64,000 bases of DNA from an uncultured candidatus Porisulfidus sp. (GTDB taxonomy: Bacteria > Pseudomonadota > Gammaproteobacteria > Poriferisulfidales > Poriferisulfidaceae), in contig OZ220480.1 in the NCBI GenBank assembly GCA_965116025.1, positions 352,001 through 416,000 of the forward strand. Reading direction: 5' to 3'. Position numbers and translations under genes: made by a program. Shown here piece by piece: positions 121-11,914 of this stretch. Below the pieces are notes generated by a model. It made no database searches and was not told the DNA's origin. It was given only the letters and a program-made list of their open reading frames with translations. The stretch's first letter is position 1, and every line of letters begins with the position of its first letter.

Positions 121-1500
121 CTAGGCCAGAACCTGTAGCATCTCTTCACGCCGGGTGAACTTCTCCCGCGGCTTGCCCTTGGACTCGCCTCGGCTAATCT
201 CCTCCGCGTCAATCCGTCGCCATTCCGCGAAATTCACGCTACGCACGTCACGTTCGGACAGCAGCTGGGCCAACGCGTCCGACCCCGGGCGGTCCGCGGG
301 GAGGCTGGACAGGTCGTCTTTCAGAGATTCGACCGTTTGGACCGCGCAAGCGCGGTTGGTCCCGATAATTCCAGATGGACCGCGCTTGATCCAGCCAGCC
401 GTGTAGAGGCCCGGCGCCACCGCTCCATCCGGGCCATCGGTGATCCGGCCTTCTTGGTGGGGGAAGACGCCCCAGGAATCATGGAACGGAACGCCCTTAA
501 TAGGAACGCCACGGTAACCGATAGAACGAAACAGCAACCCGCACTCCAGCTCCTCGGTCTCGCCGGTGCCTGATGCGCGTTGCGAGAACGGCCCGCCCGA
601 CAGTTCGTTGCGCTCCAAGACGACACGCTCGATCCCGCCGTCTCCCTCAATACGGATCGGGCTACGGCAGAACATCATGCGGCAGGTTCGGGGCTTGCCA
701 TGTTCCGACTCTTCCGCCATCTTCTCGAAAATCGCCATGTTCTTGGCGGCCACCGCGCCGAGCTTCTTATCCCCAACCTCGGCCTGGCTAGCCTCATTGA
801 GCGCGAGCTCTCTGGAGTCGATAACCGCCTGGCAGTTTTCCAGTTCCAGAAACTCGCGCAACTCCTTGGTCGTGAATTTCGCCTGCGCCGGGCCACGGCG
901 ACCGATGACGGCGATCATCCGGATCCGGCTTTCCGCCAGCTCGTCCAAGGCATGCTGGGCGATATCGGTATGCTTGAGCTCATCCACCGATTTGGAGAGG
1001 ATGCGCGCCACGTCGGCCGCGACGTTTCCTTGCCCGATGATCGCGGCAGTCTCATGCGAGAAATCGAACTCGCGGTCGCGGTAGTCCGGGTGTCCGTTGT
1101 ACCAGCCGACGAATTCCGTCGCGGTGTGGCTGCCGGCGAGGTCCTCGCCCTCAATCCCCAAGCGGCGGTCCGTCTCGGCGCCACAGGTATAGATCACGGC
1201 GTGGTAGATGTCACGCAGCTCTTGGGGGGCGACATCCTCGCCGACCGTCACGTTGCCGAAGAAGCGAAAACCCTCAAGCGTGGCGATTCTCTCGTAGACC
1301 TTGATCGACTGCTTGAGCTTTGGGTGGTCCGGCGCGACGCCGCTGCGAACCAAGCCGTAGGGAGAAGGCAAGCGCTCGATAAGGTCAACCCGAACCTCGA
1401 GTTCGGATTTCAGCAGGGCTTCGGTAGCGTAGAAGCCACTGGGCCCGGCACCAACGATCACGACCCGCAGGGGCGCGGCCTCTGTCCCCAATTGGCTCAT
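121..1500 (-). CDS. fprA: Ferredoxin/adrenodoxin-type NADP+ reductase (FprA family)
   Basis: GAGPSG FAD motif, PYGLVRSGVAPDH, IGQGNVAADVAR NADP motif, GWIKRGPSGIIGTN; adjacent to a ferredoxin. Confidence 0.9.
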   Translation of the reverse strand: MSQLGTEAAPLRVVIVGAGPSGFYATEALLKSELEVRVDLIERLPSPYGLVRSGVAPDHPKLKQSIKVYERIATLEGFRFFGNVTVGEDVAPQELRDIYHAVIYTCGAETDRRLGIEGEDLAGSHTATEFVGWYNGHPDYRDREFDFSHETAAIIGQGNVAADVARILSKSVDELKHTDIAQHALDELAESRIRMIAVIGRRGPAQAKFTTKELREFLELENCQAVIDSRELALNEASQAEVGDKKLGAVAAKNMAIFEKMAEESEHGKPRTCRMMFCRSPIRIEGDGGIERVVLERNELSGGPFSQRASGTGETEELECGLLFRSIGYRGVPIKGVPFHDSWGVFPHQEGRITDGPDGAVAPGLYTAGWIKRGPSGIIGTNRACAVQTVESLKDDLSSLPADRPGSDALAQLLSERDVRSVNFAEWRRIDAEEISRGESKGKPREKFTRREEMLQVLA

Positions 1501-1503
1501 GGA

Positions 1504-1809
1504 TCAGAATCCCAGAGCGGTCTTGCGCTCATCCGCTCCCGGCAACGGATCCATCTTGTCTTCCAGCACTGGGAGATCAGGAGCCCGTTCGGCGTTAATC
1601 TCGATCCACTCTTGCTTGTCTTCCGGCAGATCGTCCTCCTCGTAAATCGCCTGGACCGGGCATTCCGGGATGCAGGCGCTGCAGTCGATGCAGACATCCG
1701 GGTCGATGTACAGCATCTCGTCGTCATAATGGAAGCACGCGACGGGGCAAACCGTTACGCAGTCCGTATAGCGGCAACCTTTGCAGTTGTCGGTCACGAT
1801 CGTGGTCAT
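1504..1809 (-). CDS. fdxA: 7Fe ([3Fe-4S][4Fe-4S]) ferredoxin, Azotobacter FdI type
   Basis: CKGCRYTDCVTVCP and CIDCSACIPECP cysteine patterns with an acidic C-terminal tail. Confidence 0.9.
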   Translation of the reverse strand: MTTIVTDNCKGCRYTDCVTVCPVACFHYDDEMLYIDPDVCIDCSACIPECPVQAIYEEDDLPEDKQEWIEINAERAPDLPVLEDKMDPLPGADERKTALGF

Positions 1810-1839
1810 GAAAAGAAGCTCCTCGGTATGGTGAATCCA

Positions 1840-1881
1840 GCTCGTCCGCCAAAGGCGGACGAGCGTCTAGAAATTATTATA
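1840..1881 (-). promoter_or_regulatory. Putative sigma70 -10 box and 5'-UTR hairpin for fdxA-fprA
   Basis: TATAAT on the minus strand at 1881-1876; perfect 11-bp inverted repeat GCTCGTCCGCC-AAA-GGCGGACGAGC at 1840-1864. Confidence 0.55.
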
Positions 1882-1990
1882 ACGGAAGGCGCCCCAGCAC
1901 CGGGGCGAACGGCGCCCCCCTAGCCCTCGTCCATGTCGTTCCCGGAATCCGCTGCGCTCGCGCGCGAATTCCACGTCCGTCAAGCGGCCT

Positions 1991-2992
<1,002 letters not shown>

Positions 2993-3227
2993 TCAGCTCG
3001 CGACAGGGCTTGTTGACGGTATCCTTCGGCTCCAACCCACACGCCCCACGCTCGCGAATCGCCTAGAAAATGCGGCGACGCGATCAATCCGCTTCTGGTG
3101 TCATGCGGATTCTTCCGCCGCGCCTCGGCATGGGCGAATTCTGGTGGCGAAATCGACTTTCTCGAGTTCGCCACGGCCAAGGATCTACGAGCCGCGCGGA
3201 AACCGCTCTTTCCCGAATGGCGCGGGG

Positions 3228-4040
3228 CTAGCGCGAATCGAACACGAGGATTTCTCCCCGGTTCTCCTCCACGCTATCGCCGCAATAGCGCCGGTAGCGT
3301 CCTCCCATGTAGACATCGTCGAGGTCGAAGCCGCTCTGCGCGATATGGCACAAGTAGAACCGGAGGAACGTGGGCCGCAACCAGCAGGAGTAGGAGAACG
3401 TCGGGAGCAACTCCACCGGCTGGAACGAGACGATCGTGCCGCGGATCATGCCCGCGCCCGGGCGGGCGCCCATGCCGCCCATCACGATGATGGTTCCGGC
3501 GCGCATGTTGACGCCGGCGAAATCGCCGGCCGACCCGCCCACCGCGATCAGTCCCCGGCGCATGGCCGAGCCCAGCTCGTTCTTGACGTCGCCATGAATC
3601 AGGATCTCCCCGCCCAGGATTCCGACGCGCTGGCCCCGGTAGGCGCTGCCCACCATGTGGCCAGCGTCACCCATCACCTCGATCCGGCCTCCGCTCATCT
3701 CCGGGCCCACCCAATCGGACGCGTCTCCGGAGACCCGGATCGTCCCCCCAGACATGCCGACGCCCAAGTGCATGCCGGCGGAGCCGTTCACGAGGATCTC
3801 GCCTTCCGTCATCCCGGCGCCGATGTACTTGACTCGTGACAGGTCGCCTTCCAGGCGGAGCGAGGACTGGCCGTTCCCGGTCACCCGAAAGAAGTCCCCG
3901 ACCCGGACCTTGCGGTTGCCATGCATCATCTCGAGGTTCTCGATCCCCGATTGCGACAGCCCCTTGATTTTCGCCGGGCTCAGGCACTCCGCCTCGAGCG
4001 GGACCTCCGGCGCGGTGACCAGTTCCAGCTCGGTCGGCAT
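3228..4040 (-). CDS. fwdC: Formylmethanofuran dehydrogenase subunit C (FwdC/FhcC)
   Basis: GXGXXG beta-helix repeats (GAGMTEGEILVNG, GVGMSGGTIRVSG); operon context. Confidence 0.92.
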   Translation of the reverse strand: MPTELELVTAPEVPLEAECLSPAKIKGLSQSGIENLEMMHGNRKVRVGDFFRVTGNGQSSLRLEGDLSRVKYIGAGMTEGEILVNGSAGMHLGVGMSGGTIRVSGDASDWVGPEMSGGRIEVMGDAGHMVGSAYRGQRVGILGGEILIHGDVKNELGSAMRRGLIAVGGSAGDFAGVNMRAGTIIVMGGMGARPGAGMIRGTIVSFQPVELLPTFSYSCWLRPTFLRFYLCHIAQSGFDLDDVYMGGRYRRYCGDSVEENRGEILVFDSR

Positions 4041-4042
4041 GA

Positions 4043-4936
4043 TCAGGCGCTCTCCAGCAATTCGTAAAGGCCGAATTTGTGCTGGCCGAGCGTTCCGCCG
4101 TAGTTGCCCGCGCTGACGTAGTCCACGCCGCGCGCCGCGGCCGCCCGGATCCCCCGGCGCATGGCCTCGCGCAAAGCATCCTCCGTGAGCCCATTGACGA
4201 CGACCTCGTACACCGCCGCGATGCCTTCCGGCAACATTGTATGCTTCACGCGTCCGCGCAGGGTCGGGCAGTAGGCCTCGTTGGTGGAGGCGATCAGACT
4301 CTTGTAGCGCGATCCCACCTTGCTTCCGGAGCCGACCACCCCTTGCGGGAACGGCAGAAACACGCCCGCCACGTGGCGCATCGCCTCCGCCGCGTCCGAC
4401 GCGGCGCGCAGCGCGACCTGTCCGCTCTTGCCCAGCATCAGCAGATTGCCTCCTCCGATGGCGGGCTGCACCCCGAAGACGTCGTCCACCAGGAACTCGC
4501 CGCCCATGATCGGGATTCTCCAGAATCTCCGATCACCGACCACCTTCGCGATCTGGTGTCCGTCTCCGAAGAACCGCAGGCGCTGGCCGACCGGCACGAC
4601 GGTCTCCCCCGCGAGCCCGTTGTAGCAAGCGGTCGTCGGGCAGGTCATCACGCATTGCCCGATGCGCTCGACCAAGCGCGCGCTCATGTCCTTCTCGCTC
4701 ATCGCGAACAGCAGCACGCTGATCCCCGGGCGCAGGTCCGGCGTGTCGGTATCGGGAATCTCGCACTCCACGGCCGCCTCGCACTTGCAACGGATCACGG
4801 AGGTGGCGAATCCGGTGATGGACTGCGCCGCGGCGCGCGCCCAACTCTTGGTGGCGGCGGTGATGATGACGCGCGCGCCCCACATGCCGAAGGCCTCGGC
4901 GAACGTGTCGACCACCTCGGTCTTGCCGATCCTCAT
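4043..4936 (-). CDS. ftr: Formylmethanofuran-tetrahydromethanopterin formyltransferase (Ftr/FhcD)
   Basis: DTFAEAF N-terminus, GFATSVI, RIGQCVMTCPTT, GSGSKVGS, SAGNYGGTLG. Confidence 0.95.
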   Translation of the reverse strand: MRIGKTEVVDTFAEAFGMWGARVIITAATKSWARAAAQSITGFATSVIRCKCEAAVECEIPDTDTPDLRPGISVLLFAMSEKDMSARLVERIGQCVMTCPTTACYNGLAGETVVPVGQRLRFFGDGHQIAKVVGDRRFWRIPIMGGEFLVDDVFGVQPAIGGGNLLMLGKSGQVALRAASDAAEAMRHVAGVFLPFPQGVVGSGSKVGSRYKSLIASTNEAYCPTLRGRVKHTMLPEGIAAVYEVVVNGLTEDALREAMRRGIRAAAARGVDYVSAGNYGGTLGQHKFGLYELLESA

Positions 4937-6597
4937 TTCCGCTTGCCGTCCGGGTCGCGTGGCGGAATGACCTCATGGTCGTGAAGATAGGAGGCGTCCA
5001 CCCGGTAGTTGTTGAACTGGATCGAGTAGTAGTCCTCGAAGAACGGCCGGATCTGGTCCTCGATCACGGAGTCGTAACTGGGCTCCGTGTGCAGAAATCG
5101 CCCAGTATGGTCCGCGACGAACTCGTGGTTCTCGATGATCATCTTGCCGGCCTTGATCACGTAGCGCGGAGCGTTGAACATCGCCTCGCGGTCCTCCTCG
5201 TCCGTGTAGACCGTGACATCGGCGTCCGCCCCAACCCCCAAGTGCCCCTTGTTCGCAAGGCCCAGCGCCCGGGCCGGAGCCGCGCGCGTGATGATGGCGA
5301 TCTCCGACAGGGTGTATTCCCGGTCCAGCTGCGGCAACAGGCTGTTTCGGATGGCCTTCTGGTTGACCCGCTTCATCATCTCGGTTCGATATCCCCGGTC
5401 CATCAGCAGGCGGATCACCTTCGGGTAGGTCACGAAGGAGGCGCCGTTCGGATGGTCGGTCGAGAACATCACGCGCCAAGGGTCTTGGGACAGCAGGAAC
5501 AGCTCTAGCCCGATCGCCCACTGCATGGAGTGCGTGTAGCTCGTGTCCTGATAGCTGAACGGCATGACCCCGCAACCGCTCTCGCACTCCGTGTCGGCGT
5601 TCACCCACTTGGCGTCCTTGTGCCGCAGCATCCAGGTCAGCGGAGCGTCCGCGGTCATGGCCGTAGCCTTGCCGAACATCACCATGCCGATGTCGGCCGT
5701 GAGATTCTCATGAGTGTTGAGGTAGTCGATGATGGGTTCCGATCCCGTCTTGACGCGTCCCCCGAGCTCGCCCGCGTAGCTATGGAACTGGACGTGCGCG
5801 ATGTGCGCCCGATGTCCCTCGGCCGCCTTCATCGTGTCCAGCGTGGTCCGGTAGTTGCCGCTGTGCCCCAGGTTGTTGCAGTGGACGTGCGCCGGATGGG
5901 GGAGATTCAGCTCGTCCACCGCCTCGATGAAAGCGTTAGTGACCTGAAGCGGGGTCAAGTCGAACGGGTCGATCTGCTCGTTGACGTCGGTCACGTTCTC
6001 GTTGCGCTTCCCCTTCCAGAACTCGTCGCTGCCGGCGTTGACCAGCTTGACTCCGGCGGCCCGGGCCGCCGTCACCCACCAGGCGATAGCGTTCTTGAAG
6101 TCCCGCTTGCGTCCCTGCTTGAGCAGGTCGTACAGGAACATGTTGTTGCCGAGCAAGACGTAGAAGCCCTTGTCGATCACCGGAGTGTCGTGGAATTCCT
6201 CGATGACGTGGCGCGCCGCCAGCGGCGGCACGGCGGCGTCGAACGCCGTGGTGTAGCCCAGCGCGGCGTAGCGGTAGCCGGTGGCGAACGTCGACGGCGT
6301 GACCCCGCCGACCCCGGACCGAGTCACGTCGGTGCCGGGGTGGACGTCGAGGCGGTGGTCCTCCGGCTGCAGCTTGCGCGAGAGGTTGACCTTGGGCCCG
6401 GCGATGTGGCAATGGATGTCGACGGCGCCCGGCATGACCACCATGCCGTGCGCGTCGATGGTTCGCGCCGAATCGGAGACCTTGTCCACGACGCGCCCGT
6501 CGCGGATAAGGATGTCGCGGACATCGCCGTCCACGCCATTGGCCGGATCGTAGACCCTTCCGCTTTTGATGCGAAGTTCCACGCCCTTCTCAGCCAT
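4933..6597 (-). CDS. fwdA: Formylmethanofuran dehydrogenase subunit A (amidohydrolase)
   Basis: DIHCHIAG, GVKLVN, HVHCNNLG, HVQFHSY and STDHPNG binuclear metal motifs. Confidence 0.95.
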   Translation of the reverse strand: MAEKGVELRIKSGRVYDPANGVDGDVRDILIRDGRVVDKVSDSARTIDAHGMVVMPGAVDIHCHIAGPKVNLSRKLQPEDHRLDVHPGTDVTRSGVGGVTPSTFATGYRYAALGYTTAFDAAVPPLAARHVIEEFHDTPVIDKGFYVLLGNNMFLYDLLKQGRKRDFKNAIAWWVTAARAAGVKLVNAGSDEFWKGKRNENVTDVNEQIDPFDLTPLQVTNAFIEAVDELNLPHPAHVHCNNLGHSGNYRTTLDTMKAAEGHRAHIAHVQFHSYAGELGGRVKTGSEPIIDYLNTHENLTADIGMVMFGKATAMTADAPLTWMLRHKDAKWVNADTECESGCGVMPFSYQDTSYTHSMQWAIGLELFLLSQDPWRVMFSTDHPNGASFVTYPKVIRLLMDRGYRTEMMKRVNQKAIRNSLLPQLDREYTLSEIAIITRAAPARALGLANKGHLGVGADADVTVYTDEEDREAMFNAPRYVIKAGKMIIENHEFVADHTGRFLHTEPSYDSVIEDQIRPFFEDYYSIQFNNYRVDASYLHDHEVIPPRDPDGKRK

Positions 6598-6633
6598 GGA
6601 GGCCGTTCCCCATCTCCCAGTTTGGTGAAAAGA

Positions 6634-7992
6634 TTACGCCGCCTTCTTATGGCCCTTCGACCGGCGTTCCTTCAGGCGAGAGTAAATCCCGTTCAGGACC
6701 TCCTCGTCCGTCGGAAACGGGGAATCGAAGGCCGGGCGCAAGGTGATCGGCACGTCGTCCATGCGGTACACGGTGCCGCCGGTGTTGATCCCGTAGGTGG
6801 CGACCATGAACGCGACTCGGGCCTGGCGACTGGTGTAGGTCGGCTTGGCGTCCAGAGAGATCACCGGGATGCGCTTCAGACGCTCGATCGCGCGCTTCGG
6901 GAAGTTCGAGGCGGGGTCCGTGGCGATCATCAGCGCCGCGTCGGCGTCGCCGCGCGCCAGCAGATCCACGGTGGTGAACTCGCCTGGGTTGAAGCGCGGA
7001 TAGCCACGGTGAAAGTTGACTCCGAACGGGTAGCCGGTCTGCCACGACACCACGTTGTCGGCCCCGGTGACGTTGCCGTGCCCGCGCACCGGCTTGGCGA
7101 CGAAATGGGTGTGCTTGTTCAGGTCAGTGGCCAGCGCCAGCAACGCGCCCGAGTTGAAATGGCGCCCACGGGTCATGGTCAGCCCCATGCCGAAGAACAG
7201 CACCCCGTAGTTGCAGCTCTTCATGCGTTCCACCAGATCGTCCAGAGTCGCGCGCGACACGCCCGTGATCTCCTCGATGTCGGCGTGGACGTCGCGCCCA
7301 CGCACCCGGGCGCGCAGGGCCCAGAGCAACTCGAAGTCGCGCCCAGGCTTGACCCGCACGACCTGGTCCGCGACCGGCGCGCTGGGCGTCTTGCGCACGT
7401 CGACCAGCACGACGTGGCGGTCCTTCTTGCCGTTCGGGATGTAGCGCCCTTTCGGCGTGACGGTGTAGCGCGTGAAATGCCTAGGATGGGACTCGGCTGG
7501 GTTGCCGCCCCAGTAAATGACCAGATCGGCGCGGTTCTTGACCTCGCCCAGCGTCGCCGTGCTCTCGCCGACGCCCTGGAAGGCGATCCCGGACGGGCCG
7601 TGGCACACCGAGGTGGTGGTGTCGATGTTGCCGCGGATCAGATCGTTGATGGCCACCGCCACGCGCTGCGCCTCGCACGGCGAGTCGCTCAGCCCATAGG
7701 TGATCGGAAACTTCGCCTCGCTCAGGACGCGCGCCGCCTCGTCCATCGCCTCCTCCAGCGGAACCTCGCGCCCATCGATCATCGCCTGCGGATGATCCTC
7801 TATGCCGTGCTGCAGGAACCAGGCGCGCCCGAGGACGCAAGCGTTCTTGGCTTTCGTGATCCGGTTCGCCTCCAGATCGACGGTCAGCTCCATATCATCG
7901 CAGACGCACCCGCAGAACGTGCAGGTGGCGTCCTTGACGACGCGGGTCGCGGGCGGGGCCGCGGCGGCCTCGGGGGGCGTGGTCTCGCTCAT
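6634..7992 (-). CDS. fwdB: Formylmethanofuran dehydrogenase subunit B (Mo/W-bis-pterin, [4Fe-4S])
   Basis: CTFCGCVCDD...NAC Fe-S motif, TSVCHGP metal-ligand motif, TLGEVKNRAD, HPRH, RGHGNV. Confidence 0.93.
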   Translation of the reverse strand: MSETTPPEAAAAPPATRVVKDATCTFCGCVCDDMELTVDLEANRITKAKNACVLGRAWFLQHGIEDHPQAMIDGREVPLEEAMDEAARVLSEAKFPITYGLSDSPCEAQRVAVAINDLIRGNIDTTTSVCHGPSGIAFQGVGESTATLGEVKNRADLVIYWGGNPAESHPRHFTRYTVTPKGRYIPNGKKDRHVVLVDVRKTPSAPVADQVVRVKPGRDFELLWALRARVRGRDVHADIEEITGVSRATLDDLVERMKSCNYGVLFFGMGLTMTRGRHFNSGALLALATDLNKHTHFVAKPVRGHGNVTGADNVVSWQTGYPFGVNFHRGYPRFNPGEFTTVDLLARGDADAALMIATDPASNFPKRAIERLKRIPVISLDAKPTYTSRQARVAFMVATYGINTGGTVYRMDDVPITLRPAFDSPFPTDEEVLNGIYSRLKERRSKGHKKAA

Positions 7993-8016
7993 GGAATCGG
8001 CACGCTCGTCAGGGCC

Positions 8017-8370
8017 TCAGTCGGCGCCCAGGCGCTCCACCTCCACCATCATCTGCTTCGACATCGGCATGCCGGAGCCCGCCGTGTCGCTCTCCATCAG
8101 CTCGCTGGAGCACGGGCCGTACGGGATGAAGATCATGTCGTCCGGAAGATCCGCGTCCTTGCGCGCCTTCCCGCATTTCACCTCCACCTTGCCAGTGGCG
8201 CAGGACAAGCGCACCCGGTCTCCGGCGGAGATCCCGAGCCGGCGCATGGCGCTCTCGCTCATCTCGATGGTTGAGGTGACATCCTGATACTCATCCTTGA
8301 GTTTCCCGGCGTTCAGGGAAGTTCCCTGCTTGCTCGACCGTCCGGGTATCAGCATCATCCGTTCCGCCAC
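8017..8370 (-). CDS. fwdD: Formylmethanofuran dehydrogenase subunit D (molybdopterin dinucleotide-binding domain)
   Basis: LIPGRSSKQG N-terminus, IFIPYGP, DTAGSGMP; directly upstream of fwdB. Confidence 0.85.
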   Translation of the reverse strand: MAERMMLIPGRSSKQGTSLNAGKLKDEYQDVTSTIEMSESAMRRLGISAGDRVRLSCATGKVEVKCGKARKDADLPDDMIFIPYGPCSSELMESDTAGSGMPMSKQMMVEVERLGAD

Positions 8371-8461: not shown

Positions 8462-9640
8462 TCAAAGACGCTCCCGCCGCAAGGCCGCTCGCCGCGCCGT
8501 GAGCCATCCGACCAGCATCCCCGCCAGGGCGACCGCCGCCGCGACGTGAAACGTCGCCGCGGGCCCGAAGTCTTCCCAAAGCGCCCCGCTGATCAAGCTG
8601 CCCAGAGCCGCGCCCACGCCGTAGTTGAGAGACAGGTACAGAGCCTGACCCCGGCTCTGAAACCGGCCGGGGAACAGCTGGTGAATGAGACGCATGGAGA
8701 CGGTATGGTAGGTGCCGTAGACCACGGCATGCAGCAGCTGGGCCGCCAGCAGCGCCGGCCACAGGTCTGGAAAATTCCCGAGCAGAGCCCAGCGAACCGC
8801 CGCGAAAAAGAACGCGGCCGCGAATAGGAGACGCGCCGAATAGCGATCCAGCCTTCGCGCCAGATACAGGAACACGGCGATCTCGCCGAGCACCCCGACC
8901 GACCACAGCGCGGCCAGACTGTAGATCGGATAGCCGTGGTCTTCCACGTAAATGGAGAAGAACGCGTAGAACGGTCCATGGCTGGCCTGCATCAGGACGA
9001 ACGCCGCCAGAAGCCCCAGCACGGGCGGATGGCGAATCAGGCTGACCAACGTGATGTGAGGCGAATGCTCGCGCCTCTGGGGCCGGCCGGTCAGCGTCAG
9101 GCTGACCAGCCATAGCCCGAAATGGCAGAAAAACCAGCCTAGCGGAATGAGCCGCATGGCGTCGGCCTCCGCGTGAAACAGAGCGGTCGAGAGAATGACG
9201 CAGGAAAAGATGAAGCCGGTCGACCCCCACGCCCGAACGCGCATGTAGGTGTAGCGCGGAGTCGCCTGCCGCTCCAGGTGCGTCAGCGTGAGACCCTCGA
9301 CCAGCGGCAACGAGGCGCACCAGAAAAAGCTGGACGCCAGCATCAGCAGGGCCATCCCGCGAAAGTCGCTGGCCCAGAGCGTCCCCAGCGCGGCCACCAT
9401 GCCCCCCAGCGTGGCGAGCCACACCAGCGGGACCCTGCGCCCGGTATGGTCCGCCAGCCAACCCCAGACGTTCGGCGCCACGACGCAAGCCGCCATCGCC
9501 ACCGCCATCAACTGCCCGATCTCGACCGCGCTGAACCCCAAGGACCTCCAGTAAAGCGGCCAGAATGGAAGAAACACGCCGAGAGCGGCGTAGTACAGAA
9601 AATAAAAGCCGGAGAACCGGCCGTACAGGAACGGGGTCAC
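8462..9640 (-). CDS. MFS transporter (MFS_1_like/HcaT-like)
   Basis: About 12 hydrophobic segments; WGWLADHTGRR motif A; RAWGSTGF. Confidence 0.85.
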   Translation of the reverse strand: MTPFLYGRFSGFYFLYYAALGVFLPFWPLYWRSLGFSAVEIGQLMAVAMAACVVAPNVWGWLADHTGRRVPLVWLATLGGMVAALGTLWASDFRGMALLMLASSFFWCASLPLVEGLTLTHLERQATPRYTYMRVRAWGSTGFIFSCVILSTALFHAEADAMRLIPLGWFFCHFGLWLVSLTLTGRPQRREHSPHITLVSLIRHPPVLGLLAAFVLMQASHGPFYAFFSIYVEDHGYPIYSLAALWSVGVLGEIAVFLYLARRLDRYSARLLFAAAFFFAAVRWALLGNFPDLWPALLAAQLLHAVVYGTYHTVSMRLIHQLFPGRFQSRGQALYLSLNYGVGAALGSLISGALWEDFGPAATFHVAAAVALAGMLVGWLTARRAALRRERL

Positions 9641-9653
9641 GCGCCGGGGAAGT

Positions 9654-10730
9654 CTAGGGCGCCGCCGCGCCGTCGCCGCACTGGGCGCGATGGCGCAAGG
9701 CCTGGTCCATCAAGGTCAGCGCCAGCATAGCCTCGGCGATCGGCACGGCGCGCAGGCCCACGCAGGGATCGTGGCGCCCCTTCGTCACCACCTCCACCGC
9801 CTCCCCCTTCCGGTTGATCGAGCGTCCCGGGATCCGGATGCTCGAGGTCGGCTTGAAGGCCAACGCGACTCGCAAGTCCTGCCCGGTGCTCACGCCCCCC
9901 AGGACGCCGCCGGCGTGGTTCGACAGGAAGCCTTCCGGCGCGATCTCGTCGCGGTGCTCGCTGCCGCGCTGCCCGACCACGGCGAAGCCGTCCCCGATCT
10001 CCACCGCCTTGACCGCGTTGACGCTCATCATCGCCTGGGCCACCATGGCGTCCAGGCGCTCGAAGACCGGCTCGCCCCAGCCGGCCGGCAGGCCGGTCGC
10101 CTCCACCTCCACCCGGGCGCCGATCGAGTCGCCCGCCCGGCGCAGGTCGTCCATGAACCGCTCCAGCTCGGCGATTCTTCCGGGCTCCGGAAAGAAAAAC
10201 GGATTCTCCTCGACCGCCGCCCAGTCCGTGGTCTCGGCGCGGATCGGGCCGACCTGCCGGACGCATCCGCGAATCTCCACCCCGTGGCGCTCGCGCAGCC
10301 ACTTCCGGGCCACTCCTCCGGCGGCCACCCGGGTCGCGGTCTCCCGCGCGGAGGCCCGCCCCCCTCCGCGCGGATCGCGGATTCCGTATTTTCTTTGGTA
10401 GGTGTAGTCCGCGTGCCCCGGGCGGAAGCGCTCGCGCAGGTCCGCGTAGTCTTTGGAGCGAGCGTCCTGGTTCTCGATCACCAGCGCGATCGGGGTCCCG
10501 GTCGTCTTTCCCTCGAAAACCCCGGAGAGGATTCGGACCCGATCCGGCTCGCGCCGCTGACTGGTGTGCCGGGTCTGGCCTGGCCGGCGGCGGTCCAAGT
10601 CGCGCTGCAGGTCGGCCTCCTCGAGCTCCAGGAGCGGCGGGCAACCGTCGATGACGCAGCCGATGGCGGGGCCATGGCTTTCGCCGAAAGAGGTGACGGC
10701 GAACAGAGAGCCGAAGGTGTTGCCCGTCAT
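9654..10730 (-). CDS. aroC: Chorismate synthase
   Basis: [33 protein letters not shown]. Confidence 0.97.
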
Positions 10731-10787
10731 GGTCCGGGATTCTACACCGCCCCGCCGCGAAACCGCGATCCGGGCCCGGATCGCGTC

Positions 10788-10821
10788 CTGTCATACGCTC
10801 GTTACAAGTCTCGCTTTTAAT
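10788..10821 (+). promoter_or_regulatory. Putative Pho box plus -10 element for pstS
   Basis: CTGTCAT-N4-TCGTTAC (10788-10805), then TTTAAT 10 nt downstream (10816-10821): PhoB-type geometry. Confidence 0.55.
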
Positions 10822-10885
10822 GCGGCGCGCGAACGGGGTCATCCCCGCCAAACCCATCGATAAAGCCTAGAGGATCTAACACATA

Positions 10886-11914
10886 ATGAACTTCCGAATT
10901 TCCGCGATCGCCCTGCTCGCGCTGGCCGCCTCCACGGGCGCCCAGGCCCGCGACCAAATCAACATCGTCGGCTCTTCCACCGTCTATCCCTTCGCCACGG
11001 TCGTCGCCGAGCGATTCGGCAAGACCACGGCCTTCAAGACCCCGAAAATCGAATCGACCGGCTCCGGCGGCGGCCTGAAGCTGTTTTGCTCCGGCGTCGG
11101 CACCAGCACTCCGGACATCACGAACGCCTCGCGCAAGATCAAGAGCAAGGAGGTCGAGACGTGCGCCAAGAACGGCGTCGGCGACGTCACCGAGGCCAAG
11201 ATCGGCTACGACGGCATCGTCCTCGCCAACTCCAAGGCGACGGCCCCGATGGAGCTGACCCGGCGCGACATCTTCCTGGCGCTGGCGCGCGAGGTCCCGG
11301 ACCCGAACGGCGGAGAGTCCTTCGTCGCCAACCCCCACGAGACGTGGAAGGACGTCAACCCTGCCCTGCCCGACGCCAAGATCGAGGTGCTCGGCCCGCC
11401 GCCGACCTCCGGCACCCGGGACGCCTTCGCCGAGCTCGCCCTGGAAGGAGGATGCAAGACCTTCCCCTGGATCAAGGCGATGAAGAAGAAGGACAAGAAG
11501 CGCTACAAGTCCTACTGCCACTCCGTGCGCGAGGACGGCCACTACATCGAGGCGGGCGAGAACGACAACCTGATCGTGCAGAAGCTGACGGCCAACCCGG
11601 CCGCGCTCGGCGTCTTCGGGTTCAGCTTCCTGGACCAGAACTCCGACAAGGTCCAGGGCTCCGTCATCGACGGCGTCGCCCCGGCCTTCGAGGCCATCGC
11701 CGACGGCAGCTATCCGGTGTCCCGGCCGCTGTACTTCTATATCAAGAACGCCCATCTGGACGCCATCCCCGGCATCCGGGAGTTCGTCGCCGAGTTCCTG
11801 AGCGACCGAGCGAGCGGCGCCGACGGCTATCTGACCGAGAAGGGCATGATCCCGATGTCCGGAAGCGAGCGCGAGGAGCTGGTGGCCCGGGTCACCTCGT
11901 TCACCCCGCTTTGA
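10886..11914 (+). CDS. pstS: Phosphate ABC transporter substrate-binding protein
   Basis: Signal peptide; VGSSTVYPF, STGSGGG, GPPPTSGTRDAF, YPVSRPLYFY. Confidence 0.92.
   Translation: MNFRISAIALLALAASTGAQARDQINIVGSSTVYPFATVVAERFGKTTAFKTPKIESTGSGGGLKLFCSGVGTSTPDITNASRKIKSKEVETCAKNGVGDVTEAKIGYDGIVLANSKATAPMELTRRDIFLALAREVPDPNGGESFVANPHETWKDVNPALPDAKIEVLGPPPTSGTRDAFAELALEGGCKTFPWIKAMKKKDKKRYKSYCHSVREDGHYIEAGENDNLIVQKLTANPAALGVFGFSFLDQNSDKVQGSVIDGVAPAFEAIADGSYPVSRPLYFYIKNAHLDAIPGIREFVAEFLSDRASGADGYLTEKGMIPMSGSEREELVARVTSFTPL

Follow-up and report, generated by a model that had tools for sequence, protein, structure and literature searches.

A conserved gene module linking an apparently redox-type formylmethanofuran dehydrogenase to a 7Fe ferredoxin and an FprA-type reductase in uncultured Gammaproteobacteria

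Overview of the gene cluster

The window analyzed here is a stretch of 64,000 nucleotides (G000:C1:352001-416000) from the single-contig genome (2.02 Mb, 99.4% complete) of an uncultured candidatus Porisulfidus species, and its first kilobases encode a formylmethanofuran dehydrogenase (Fwd) cluster together with the genes for a ferredoxin (fdxA) and an NADPH:ferredoxin oxidoreductase (fprA). Judged from gene order and sequence comparison across relatives, fwdDBA-ftr-fwdC and fdxA-fprA are a conserved seven-gene module. On the same comparative basis we consider it probable, with a likelihood of roughly 60%, that the complex of Fwd and formyltransferase (Ftr) acts together with FdxA and FprA to oxidize formyl-tetrahydromethanopterin (formyl-H4MPT) to CO2, and that the electrons would be delivered to NADP+. 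The gene order fwdD-fwdB-fwdA-ftr-fwdC, followed by a DNA methylase gene, fdxA and fprA, had been described in an earlier note on this DNA, and profile searches recovered all eight genes in that order on the minus strand of positions 121-8370:

8017-8370, minus strand: fwdD, molybdopterin-capping "fourth domain" subunit (PF01568 Molydop_binding, 38.8 bits; NF042908 FwdD model, 73.5 bits, below its exception-level cut-off)
6634-7992, minus strand: fwdB, Mo/W-pterin and [4Fe-4S] catalytic subunit (TIGR03129, 500 bits, cut-off 328)
4933-6597, minus strand: fwdA, amidohydrolase subunit for formylmethanofuran (formyl-MFR) hydrolysis or synthesis (TIGR03121, 695 bits, cut-off 393)
4043-4936, minus strand: ftr, formylmethanofuran:H4MPT formyltransferase (PF01913 FTR and PF02741 FTR_C; NF002554, 409 bits)
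3228-4040, minus strand: fwdC, beta-helix subunit with an FhcC-like C-terminal part (TIGR03122, 260 bits, cut-off 131)
1882-3227, minus strand: inserted segment with an N6/N4 DNA methylase open reading frame (ORF) at 1991-2959 (PF01555, 184 bits)
1840-1881, minus strand: TATAAT (1881-1876) and 11-bp GC-rich hairpin (1864-1840) upstream of fdxA, read from the sequence
1504-1809, minus strand: fdxA, 7Fe ([3Fe-4S][4Fe-4S]) ferredoxin (113 bits to A. vinelandii ferredoxin I)
121-1500, minus strand: fprA, adrenodoxin-reductase-type NADPH:ferredoxin oxidoreductase (374 bits, full length, to M. tuberculosis FprA)

The fwd genes are closely packed, with short intergenic gaps of 24 and 36 nt, a start of ftr that overlaps the end of fwdA and two bases between the ftr stop codon and the fwdC start.

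Conservation of the locus and linkage of the redox pair

With each species represented by a single genome, a scan gave at least 600 pattern matches. At least 517 of these encode a relative; the 80 best loci, all from metagenome-assembled genomes (MAGs), were analyzed. The closest relatives among these 80 (86-91% identical) are mostly labelled Ca. Porisulfidus, with some labelled just Gammaproteobacteria or Chromatiales, and the remaining loci belong mostly to other Gammaproteobacteria (Ca. Oxydemutator, USCg_Taylor and MAGs labelled Thiotrichaceae or Methylococcales) as well as to a few Alphaproteobacteria, four Gemmatimonadota and one member of the Ardenticatenaceae. fwdC was found in 70 of the 80 loci, and the 64 with at least 2.2 kb of sequence after fwdC served as the denominator for adjacency. 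In 58 of these 64, fdxA starts 22-159 nt (median 75) after fwdC and is followed by fprA. Among the six exceptions L016 has a 2.3-kb insertion ahead of fdxA-fprA and L079 carries the pair upstream of fwdD; four of the six retain fprA or fdxA-fprA in the latter position, and 62 of the 64 loci have the pair or fprA next to fwdC or fwdD. A possible Ftr-FdxA fusion in L079 was rejected, the two genes being in different frames. An exhaustive search returned 2660 homologues. Apart from fragments, none of their nearest non-self representatives exceeds 53% identity, and among ten homologue clusters that were looked up a single organism name, Pirellulales, was obtained.

The methylase gene was present in none of the 80 related loci and is therefore regarded as an insertion in this genome that splits fwdC from fdxA-fprA, as the earlier note had suggested; the lower GC content of the segment (0.59 versus about 0.65 in the flanks) fits this origin, and the adjacency which that note had envisaged for relatives lacking the methylase is the arrangement found in the 58 loci. 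Since the TATAAT-hairpin unit is kept directly upstream of fdxA, the insertion separates the stop codon of fwdC from the TATAAT. Counting the inserted gene, the genome has at least ten N6/N4 methylase-like matches, another of which is located at the start of the H4MPT biosynthesis cluster described below, with a type III restriction enzyme gene nearby.

The association of the two gene sets was also apparent at the level of whole genomes. In an even sample of 400 scored Gammaproteobacteria, with Fwd-type FwdB defined by at least 68% identity and FprA orthologues by at least 58%, the former was found in 21 genomes from at least 12 families, and 20 of these 21 encode the FprA orthologue as well, the exception being G010, which is 75% complete; the orthologue was present in four of the 379 genomes without Fwd-type FwdB (G119, G204, G381 and, as a partial match, G131), and kin are not independent in any of these counts. 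The redox pair is tied to methanofuran-enzyme gene islands, mostly but not solely with intact Fwd. The coupling of fdxA-fprA to fwd that had been proposed thus gains support, as a predicted linkage, from both synteny and co-occurrence. In one of the 21 genomes, G361 (L104, G361:C33:120000-139000), fwdB is interrupted by a stop codon and both fwdA and fwdC are frameshifted. Reading the in-frame TGA of this fwdB as selenocysteine was rejected, with SVCHGP intact and the stop located near residue 235 among frameshifted neighbours.

Features of FdxA and FprA

The alignment of FprA with its M. tuberculosis counterpart (PDB 1lqt_A) spans residues 10-457, bovine adrenodoxin reductase matched with 350 bits, and the protein is predicted to possess the full-length two-domain FAD/NADPH fold of this family. 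FdxA contains C9, C17 and C50, C21, C40, C43 and C46 as well as two extra cysteines, and all nine are invariant in 31 sequences and align with A. vinelandii ferredoxin I in the pattern of a 7Fe ferredoxin; the first three we take to belong to the [3Fe-4S] cluster and the following four to the [4Fe-4S] cluster. With the FdxA_Protbact model the cluster FdxA scored 118.8 bits (112-121 bits for it and three orthologues), below the cut-off of 135, while the other FdxA of the genome reached 164.8 bits and exceeded it, which identifies the cluster FdxA as a distinct paralogue. Its matches to FwdF and FwdG are weak and partial. No gene for either of these polyferredoxins was found in the cluster, the rest of the genome lying outside the search, and the earlier statement that they are absent holds for the cluster. 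The fwd-fdxA-fprA module was likewise found to contain no gene for another electron carrier. A complex prediction of FwdB with FdxA from two alignments scored 0.19, the mark being 0.32, a value that counts neither for nor against a contact.

The earlier note had cautioned that fdxA seems to have its own -10 box. The TATAAT was confirmed at 1881-1876 of the minus strand and is conserved in genus-level relatives: a TATAAT-hairpin-ribosome-binding-site layout occupies the short fwdC-fdxA spacer of L010-L013 and L015-L017, and L014 keeps the TATAAT and half of the hairpin. A two-hexamer promoter scan called no full promoter upstream of fdxA. On this pattern of conservation, fdxA-fprA probably has an internal promoter.

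The catalytic core and its Fhc-like frame

FwdB is apparently of the redox type. It aligned over its full length with five solved archaeal FwdB chains (344-377 bits; 368 bits for M. wolfeii PDB 5t5i_B), whereas FhcB of the M. extorquens formyltransferase/hydrolase complex (Fhc; PDB 6s6y_B) matched the C-terminal half alone with 54 bits. The cluster motif of the window protein consists of C24, C27, C31 and C52 plus an extra C29, and its catalytic motifs are C130-H131 within SVCHGP and R303-G-H within PVRGHGNV. These align with CPFCGTLCDD, SVCHGPS and PMRGHYNV of M. wolfeii FwdB, for which the available text of PMC6926001 gives Cys118, His119 and Arg288 as the catalytic residues. The four Fe-S cysteines, the SVCHGP cysteine and the RGH motif had been reported as intact from the window sequence, and this comparison with archaeal FwdB and FhcB agrees, with no loss of pterin-site motifs. 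Among the 80 FwdB orthologues the CxxCxxxC...C motif is kept in all (K or R replaces the N before AC in 15), as is the Cys-His of S[VA]CHGP, and PxRGH is kept in 79.

The separate FwdD, which had also been claimed, was recovered by PF01568, by the FwdD model and by a match of 53 bits to M. wolfeii FwdD (PDB 5t5i_D), and fwdD is located immediately upstream of fwdB in 78 of the 80 related loci, the exceptions being L087 and L089. The window cluster combines features of Fwd-type enzymes (a four-cysteine site, Cys-His and Arg, a separate FwdD, FwdA and FwdC) and departs from the Fhc type, in which the B subunit has neither pterin ligands nor an Fe-S domain and a D subunit is missing.

The accessory subunits presented a more mixed pattern. 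FwdA scored 452-482 bits with archaeal FwdA, the best PDB match being 8rja_A with 482 bits, versus 357 bits with M. extorquens FhcA. Ftr is about equally near FhcD (287 bits) and archaeal Ftr (281 bits). The alignment of archaeal FwdC to the window FwdC ends at about residue 217, while M. extorquens FhcC aligns with residues 20-266, the C-terminal RRYxGD...GE included, and residues 217-266 match FhcC and not archaeal FwdC. With ftr inside the cluster and this FhcC-type C-terminal part, the predicted frame of the complex is that of Fhc. According to the available text of PMC6926001, FhcC differs from Fwd in this region and serves as the platform for the formyltransferase. Because FwdB, FwdD and FwdA are archaeal-like and FwdC is mixed, the complex resembles a Fwd catalytic core in an Fhc-like frame.

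A second Ftr paralogue is encoded outside the window (G000:C1:599066-599992, L093:4067-4993). It is 40% identical to the cluster Ftr, scored 306 bits with NF002554, above the cut-off, and is located between folD and a 5-formyl-tetrahydrofolate cyclo-ligase gene, a position that hints at a link from methanofuran/H4MPT to folate-bound formyl groups.

A second cluster, of the Fhc type, was present in 30 of the 80 loci, usually right after fprA; most of these FhcB-bearing loci come from gammaproteobacterial MAGs and four from Gemmatimonadota. Its B, A, D and C proteins are 25-36%, 42-50%, 50-57% and 33-42% identical to the window proteins. In these co-resident FhcB (e.g. L036:7551-8777; loci L030-L089) the catalytic Cys-His is kept in none of 30 and RGH in two, and the N-terminal CxxCxxxC motif is found in all 30. 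Mean pairwise identity was calculated over 20 loci with all genes complete, and for the Fwd-type proteins and the redox pair amounted to 82% for FwdB, 79% for FwdA, 71% for Ftr, 69% for FwdD, 62% for FwdC, 81% for FdxA and 67% for FprA, compared with 50% for FhcB, 74% for FhcA and 77% for FhcD in the same loci. FwdB is thus the most constrained subunit and the scaffold FhcB the least, as a catalytic role of FwdB predicts.

Genome context of C1 metabolism

The genes that the earlier note had listed for a genome search (mch, fae, mtdB, mptG and those for pterin cofactor synthesis) were recovered, mtdB as mtdB-like genes and the cofactor genes as MoaC, MoeA and MobA. An H4MPT cluster at 1.65 Mb, 1.3 Mb from the fwd cluster, comprises mptG, an Mpt_N dehydrogenase gene, an ATP-grasp gene, mch, an MptN-like ligase gene, a CitG-like gene and fae, and two Mpt_N dehydrogenase (mtdB-like) genes are present genome-wide. 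On the presence of MoaC, MoeA (559 bits, cut-off 440) and MobA (212 bits, cut-off 152), with MoaA, MoaD and MoaE outside the search, the genome is predicted to make the bis(molybdopterin guanine dinucleotide) cofactor.

One fwd/fhc cluster was found in the genome, which is of the Fwd type, and no Fhc-type cluster. A formate dehydrogenase alpha subunit was not detected in the genome at E<=1e-100, and the model for metal-free NAD-dependent formate dehydrogenase remained below its cut-off there. Two genes for haem-copper oxidases are present. Methanol dehydrogenase as the source of C1 units was rejected, with no pyrroloquinoline quinone-dependent alcohol (methanol) dehydrogenase above the cut-off in the genome.

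Apart from FwdB, the PF00384 proteins of the genome are NuoG and a molybdopterin enzyme of 763 aa. The latter (L002:682-2973, G000:C1:36036-38327) is cytoplasmic, has acetylene hydratase as its nearest relative (196 bits) and falls below every NCBIfam cut-off. The NuoG ORF (L090:7225-10764, G000:C1:697224-700763) comprises 1179 aa, of which the model covers residues 421-1037, and the approximately 420 extra N-terminal residues may represent a fusion or an ORF-calling artefact.

Proposed function and alternative explanations

In the proposed route Ftr would transfer the formyl group from formyl-H4MPT to methanofuran, FwdA would hydrolyze formyl-MFR, the pterin centre of FwdBD would oxidize the resulting formate to CO2, and the two electrons would travel from the FwdB [4Fe-4S] cluster via FdxA and FprA to NADP+. 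No other enzyme of the genome would convert formyl-MFR, which would place the complex at the end of the H4MPT-linked route of formaldehyde oxidation. The NADP+/NADPH couple has a potential of about -0.32 V. With the CO2/formyl-MFR couple at about -0.53 V (available part of PMC11656701), electron flow to NADP+ would be downhill. The assignment in the earlier note of a Mo/W enzyme that oxidizes formyl-MFR to CO2 is supported by this comparative evidence, and none of the refuting conditions named there was borne out; of the two directions it had allowed, the oxidative one is favoured, and reduction of CO2 appears unlikely on thermodynamic grounds.

Several observations weigh against this proposal. 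The conserved TATAAT of fdxA weakens the putative co-transcription of the pair with fwd. Three Gemmatimonadota loci (L076, L077 and L088) carry fprA upstream of fwdD, and the DNA retrieved for them contains no fdxA; both genes are missing from L074. In the 400-genome sample, fdxA-fprA is located directly upstream of an Fhc-type cluster in G204, fprA is upstream of such a cluster in G381, with no Fwd-type FwdB found in either genome, and G119 (L103, G119:C80:1-12000) has only fwdA fragments, which lie between fdxA and fprA. These three cases indicate that the redox pair can persist without intact Fwd, although the clusters of G119 and G361 could be the result of decay or sequencing error. Regarding the metal, no ModA-type molybdate-binding protein was found in the genome, so that the metal may be either Mo or W, and the 763-aa molybdopterin enzyme could alone account for the cofactor genes. 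Formate dehydrogenase alpha subunits above the cut-off are encoded by G052 (same genus), G254 and G400 (same order) and G099, all of them without an Fhc-type FhcB. A general rule by which Fwd replaces Fhc plus formate dehydrogenase was rejected on these four genomes, and Fwd consequently is not a simple substitute for that combination everywhere. Finally, the counts for FwdB, FprA and formate dehydrogenase include four unpublished genomes (G039, G141, G296 and G308).

In a rival explanation Fwd would be redox-active but FdxA-FprA would not be its electron outlet, with the pair supplying reducing power for H4MPT/methanofuran biosynthesis, or for activation or protection of the pterin and Fe-S centres, and Fwd using another carrier. 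The fdxA-fprA or fprA genes beside Fhc-type clusters in G204 and G381, the TATAAT that fdxA has of its own and the Gemmatimonadota loci with fprA and no fdxA within the fetched DNA are compatible with such a role, and the N-terminal cysteine motif kept by all 30 co-resident FhcB could offer the ferredoxin a partner there. We nevertheless regard this explanation as unlikely: the pair adjoins fwdC or fwdD in 62 of 64 loci and not the H4MPT biosynthesis cluster, which is 1.3 Mb away in this genome, the module holds no other electron carrier gene, and the Fwd clusters of G119 and G361 appear to be decaying, so that the Fhc-adjacent cases may be remnants.

The Fhc-like gene order and FwdC C-terminus, together with the separate formate dehydrogenase of near relatives, would accord with an Fhc-like hydrolase that releases formate, in which FwdBD is mainly a scaffold or oxidizes free formate as a formate dehydrogenase in its own right. 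The conservation data make this improbable, since FwdB is the most conserved subunit and the scaffold FhcB the least in the same genomes, all 80 orthologues have the catalytic Cys-His and 79 of them the Arg, and 78 of the 80 loci still encode FwdD; the genome moreover has no recognizable formate dehydrogenase to handle the released formate. Operation of the module in reverse, with NADPH reducing FdxA via FprA and Fwd, as in methanogens, attaching CO2 to methanofuran for assimilation as a C1 unit, is very unlikely even though archaeal Fwd runs in the CO2-fixing direction and the chemistry is reversible (available part of PMC11656701), because reaching -0.53 V from NADPH at -0.32 V is about 40 kJ/mol uphill, the module contains no bifurcating or energy-coupling partner, and fae, mtdB and mch make up an oxidative formaldehyde route.

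Returning to the NADP+-linked oxidation, a bolder formulation would treat the seven genes as one NADP+-reducing formylmethanofuran dehydrogenase/formyltransferase in O2-respiring Proteobacteria, a living intermediate between Fwd and Fhc that converts formyl-H4MPT to CO2 and NADPH without free formate; we put this forward tentatively, at somewhat less than even odds. In the textbook account of bacterial methylotrophy the H4MPT pathway ends with Fhc, and formate is released. If the bolder formulation were true, the module would provide a second exit from this pathway that yields NADPH instead of NADH via formate dehydrogenase and involves no free formate. The module is widespread, with at least 517 species-level genomes matched, and its carriers belong to abundant uncultured groups; in many genomes it would operate in parallel to Fhc as an NADPH-yielding branch. 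The intermediate would be one in which Ftr had been recruited and the C subunit was of the FhcC type, with the dehydrogenase not yet lost. The cluster offers a way to test the proposal, based on the Fhc structure (PMC6926001), that Fhc evolved from Fwd in steps. A possible O2-tolerant, NADPH-linked member of this CO2-converting enzyme family would also be of interest for biocatalysis.

Genes upstream of the cluster

The genuine genes upstream of the fwd cluster encode an MFS transporter, AroC (9654-10730, minus strand) and a PstS-like binding protein (10886-11914, plus strand). The PstS-like/PBP_like_2 gene, which stands alone 2.5 kb upstream of fwdD, scored 154 bits, below the cut-off; the PstS/PBP_like_2 family also takes in the tungstate-binding protein TupA. 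Two further ORFs on the minus strand (9637-10857, 406 aa, and 10817-11755, 312 aa) were rejected as genes: they are rich in Arg, Gly and Pro, have no family matches and represent other frames over aroC and the PstS-like gene. Both gave tblastn matches in relatives nonetheless, and they are probably artefacts of high GC content.

Comparison with known systems

In the available part of a 2016 review (PMC5020050), a fwdD homologue is described as kept in Archaea, Synergistetes, Firmicutes and NC10 and not in Planctomycetes or Proteobacteria, and the portion of PMC10100899 available to us reports 149 bacterial FwdB matches, attributed to transfer from Archaea. In the searchable literature, which did not include the supplements of PMC7325909 and PMC6926001, we found no description of a linkage of fdxA/fprA to fwd or of this cluster in Proteobacteria.

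The window cluster shares with M. extorquens FhcABCD (PDB 6s6y) the gene order B-A-ftr-C, an Ftr related to FhcD and the H4MPT formaldehyde-oxidation pathway. In contrast, it possesses the Fe-S domain, the catalytic Cys, His and Arg and the D subunit. The earlier note had characterized Methylorubrum Fhc by a degenerate FhcB and the lack of a D subunit, and this is borne out by the available text of PMC6926001, in which FhcB has no Fe-S domain, carries a Ser where the catalytic Cys would be and has neither the His nor the Arg, and Fhc comes without a D subunit. The co-resident FhcB of our relatives are a further variant in keeping the N-terminal CxxCxxxC...C motif, as the whole domain is missing from M. 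extorquens FhcB in that account (PMC6926001, as far as available).

A counterpart in gene order has been reported in single-cell genomes of Hakuba Actinobacteria, which according to the available text of PMC7325909 carry fwdDBA-ftr-fwdC, an FwdB with N-terminal [4Fe-4S] site and Cys118 and no fwdE, fwdF or fwdG. While the operon order is common to both, the Hakuba organism is described there as an anaerobe that has the Wood-Ljungdahl pathway and for which no genes of H4MPT biosynthesis were observed, whereas the window host is proteobacterial and encodes a full H4MPT route. An fdxA-fprA linkage is not mentioned in the available main text of that paper, which excludes its supplementary figure.

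Relative to archaeal FwdABCDFG (M. wolfeii PDB 5t5i; related structures are 8rja, 7bkb, 9sw6 and 9sfi), the scores to the 5t5i chains show that FwdB, FwdD, FwdA and FwdC are homologous, with 368, 53, 452 and 164 bits, respectively. The window cluster differs in that it has no FwdF or FwdG gene and is linked instead to a 7Fe ferredoxin and an FprA-type flavoenzyme, ftr is placed between fwdA and fwdC, and the C-terminus of FwdC is FhcC-like. Its host, a gammaproteobacterium, encodes haem-copper oxidases, and the direction of the reaction is probably oxidative here.

The module encodes a full-length homologue of the M. tuberculosis FprA/adrenodoxin reductase family whose partner gene specifies a 7Fe ferredoxin, and 7Fe ferredoxins are FprA substrates. 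FprA and adrenodoxin reductases are known for supplying electrons from NADPH to P450s and the like, and the flow proposed here, from ferredoxin to NADP+, is reversed relative to these roles. An oxidative Fmd core that serves a higher-potential acceptor has been described for Ca. Ethanoperedens (PDB 8rja; see also PMC11493965), in which, according to the available part of PMC11656701, electrons pass to F420 via an attached reductase. This F420-coupled enzyme sets a precedent for an exchanged electron module, the acceptor route being a fused or bound F420 reductase in Ca. Ethanoperedens and, as proposed for the window cluster, a 7Fe ferredoxin with an NADPH-dependent FprA.

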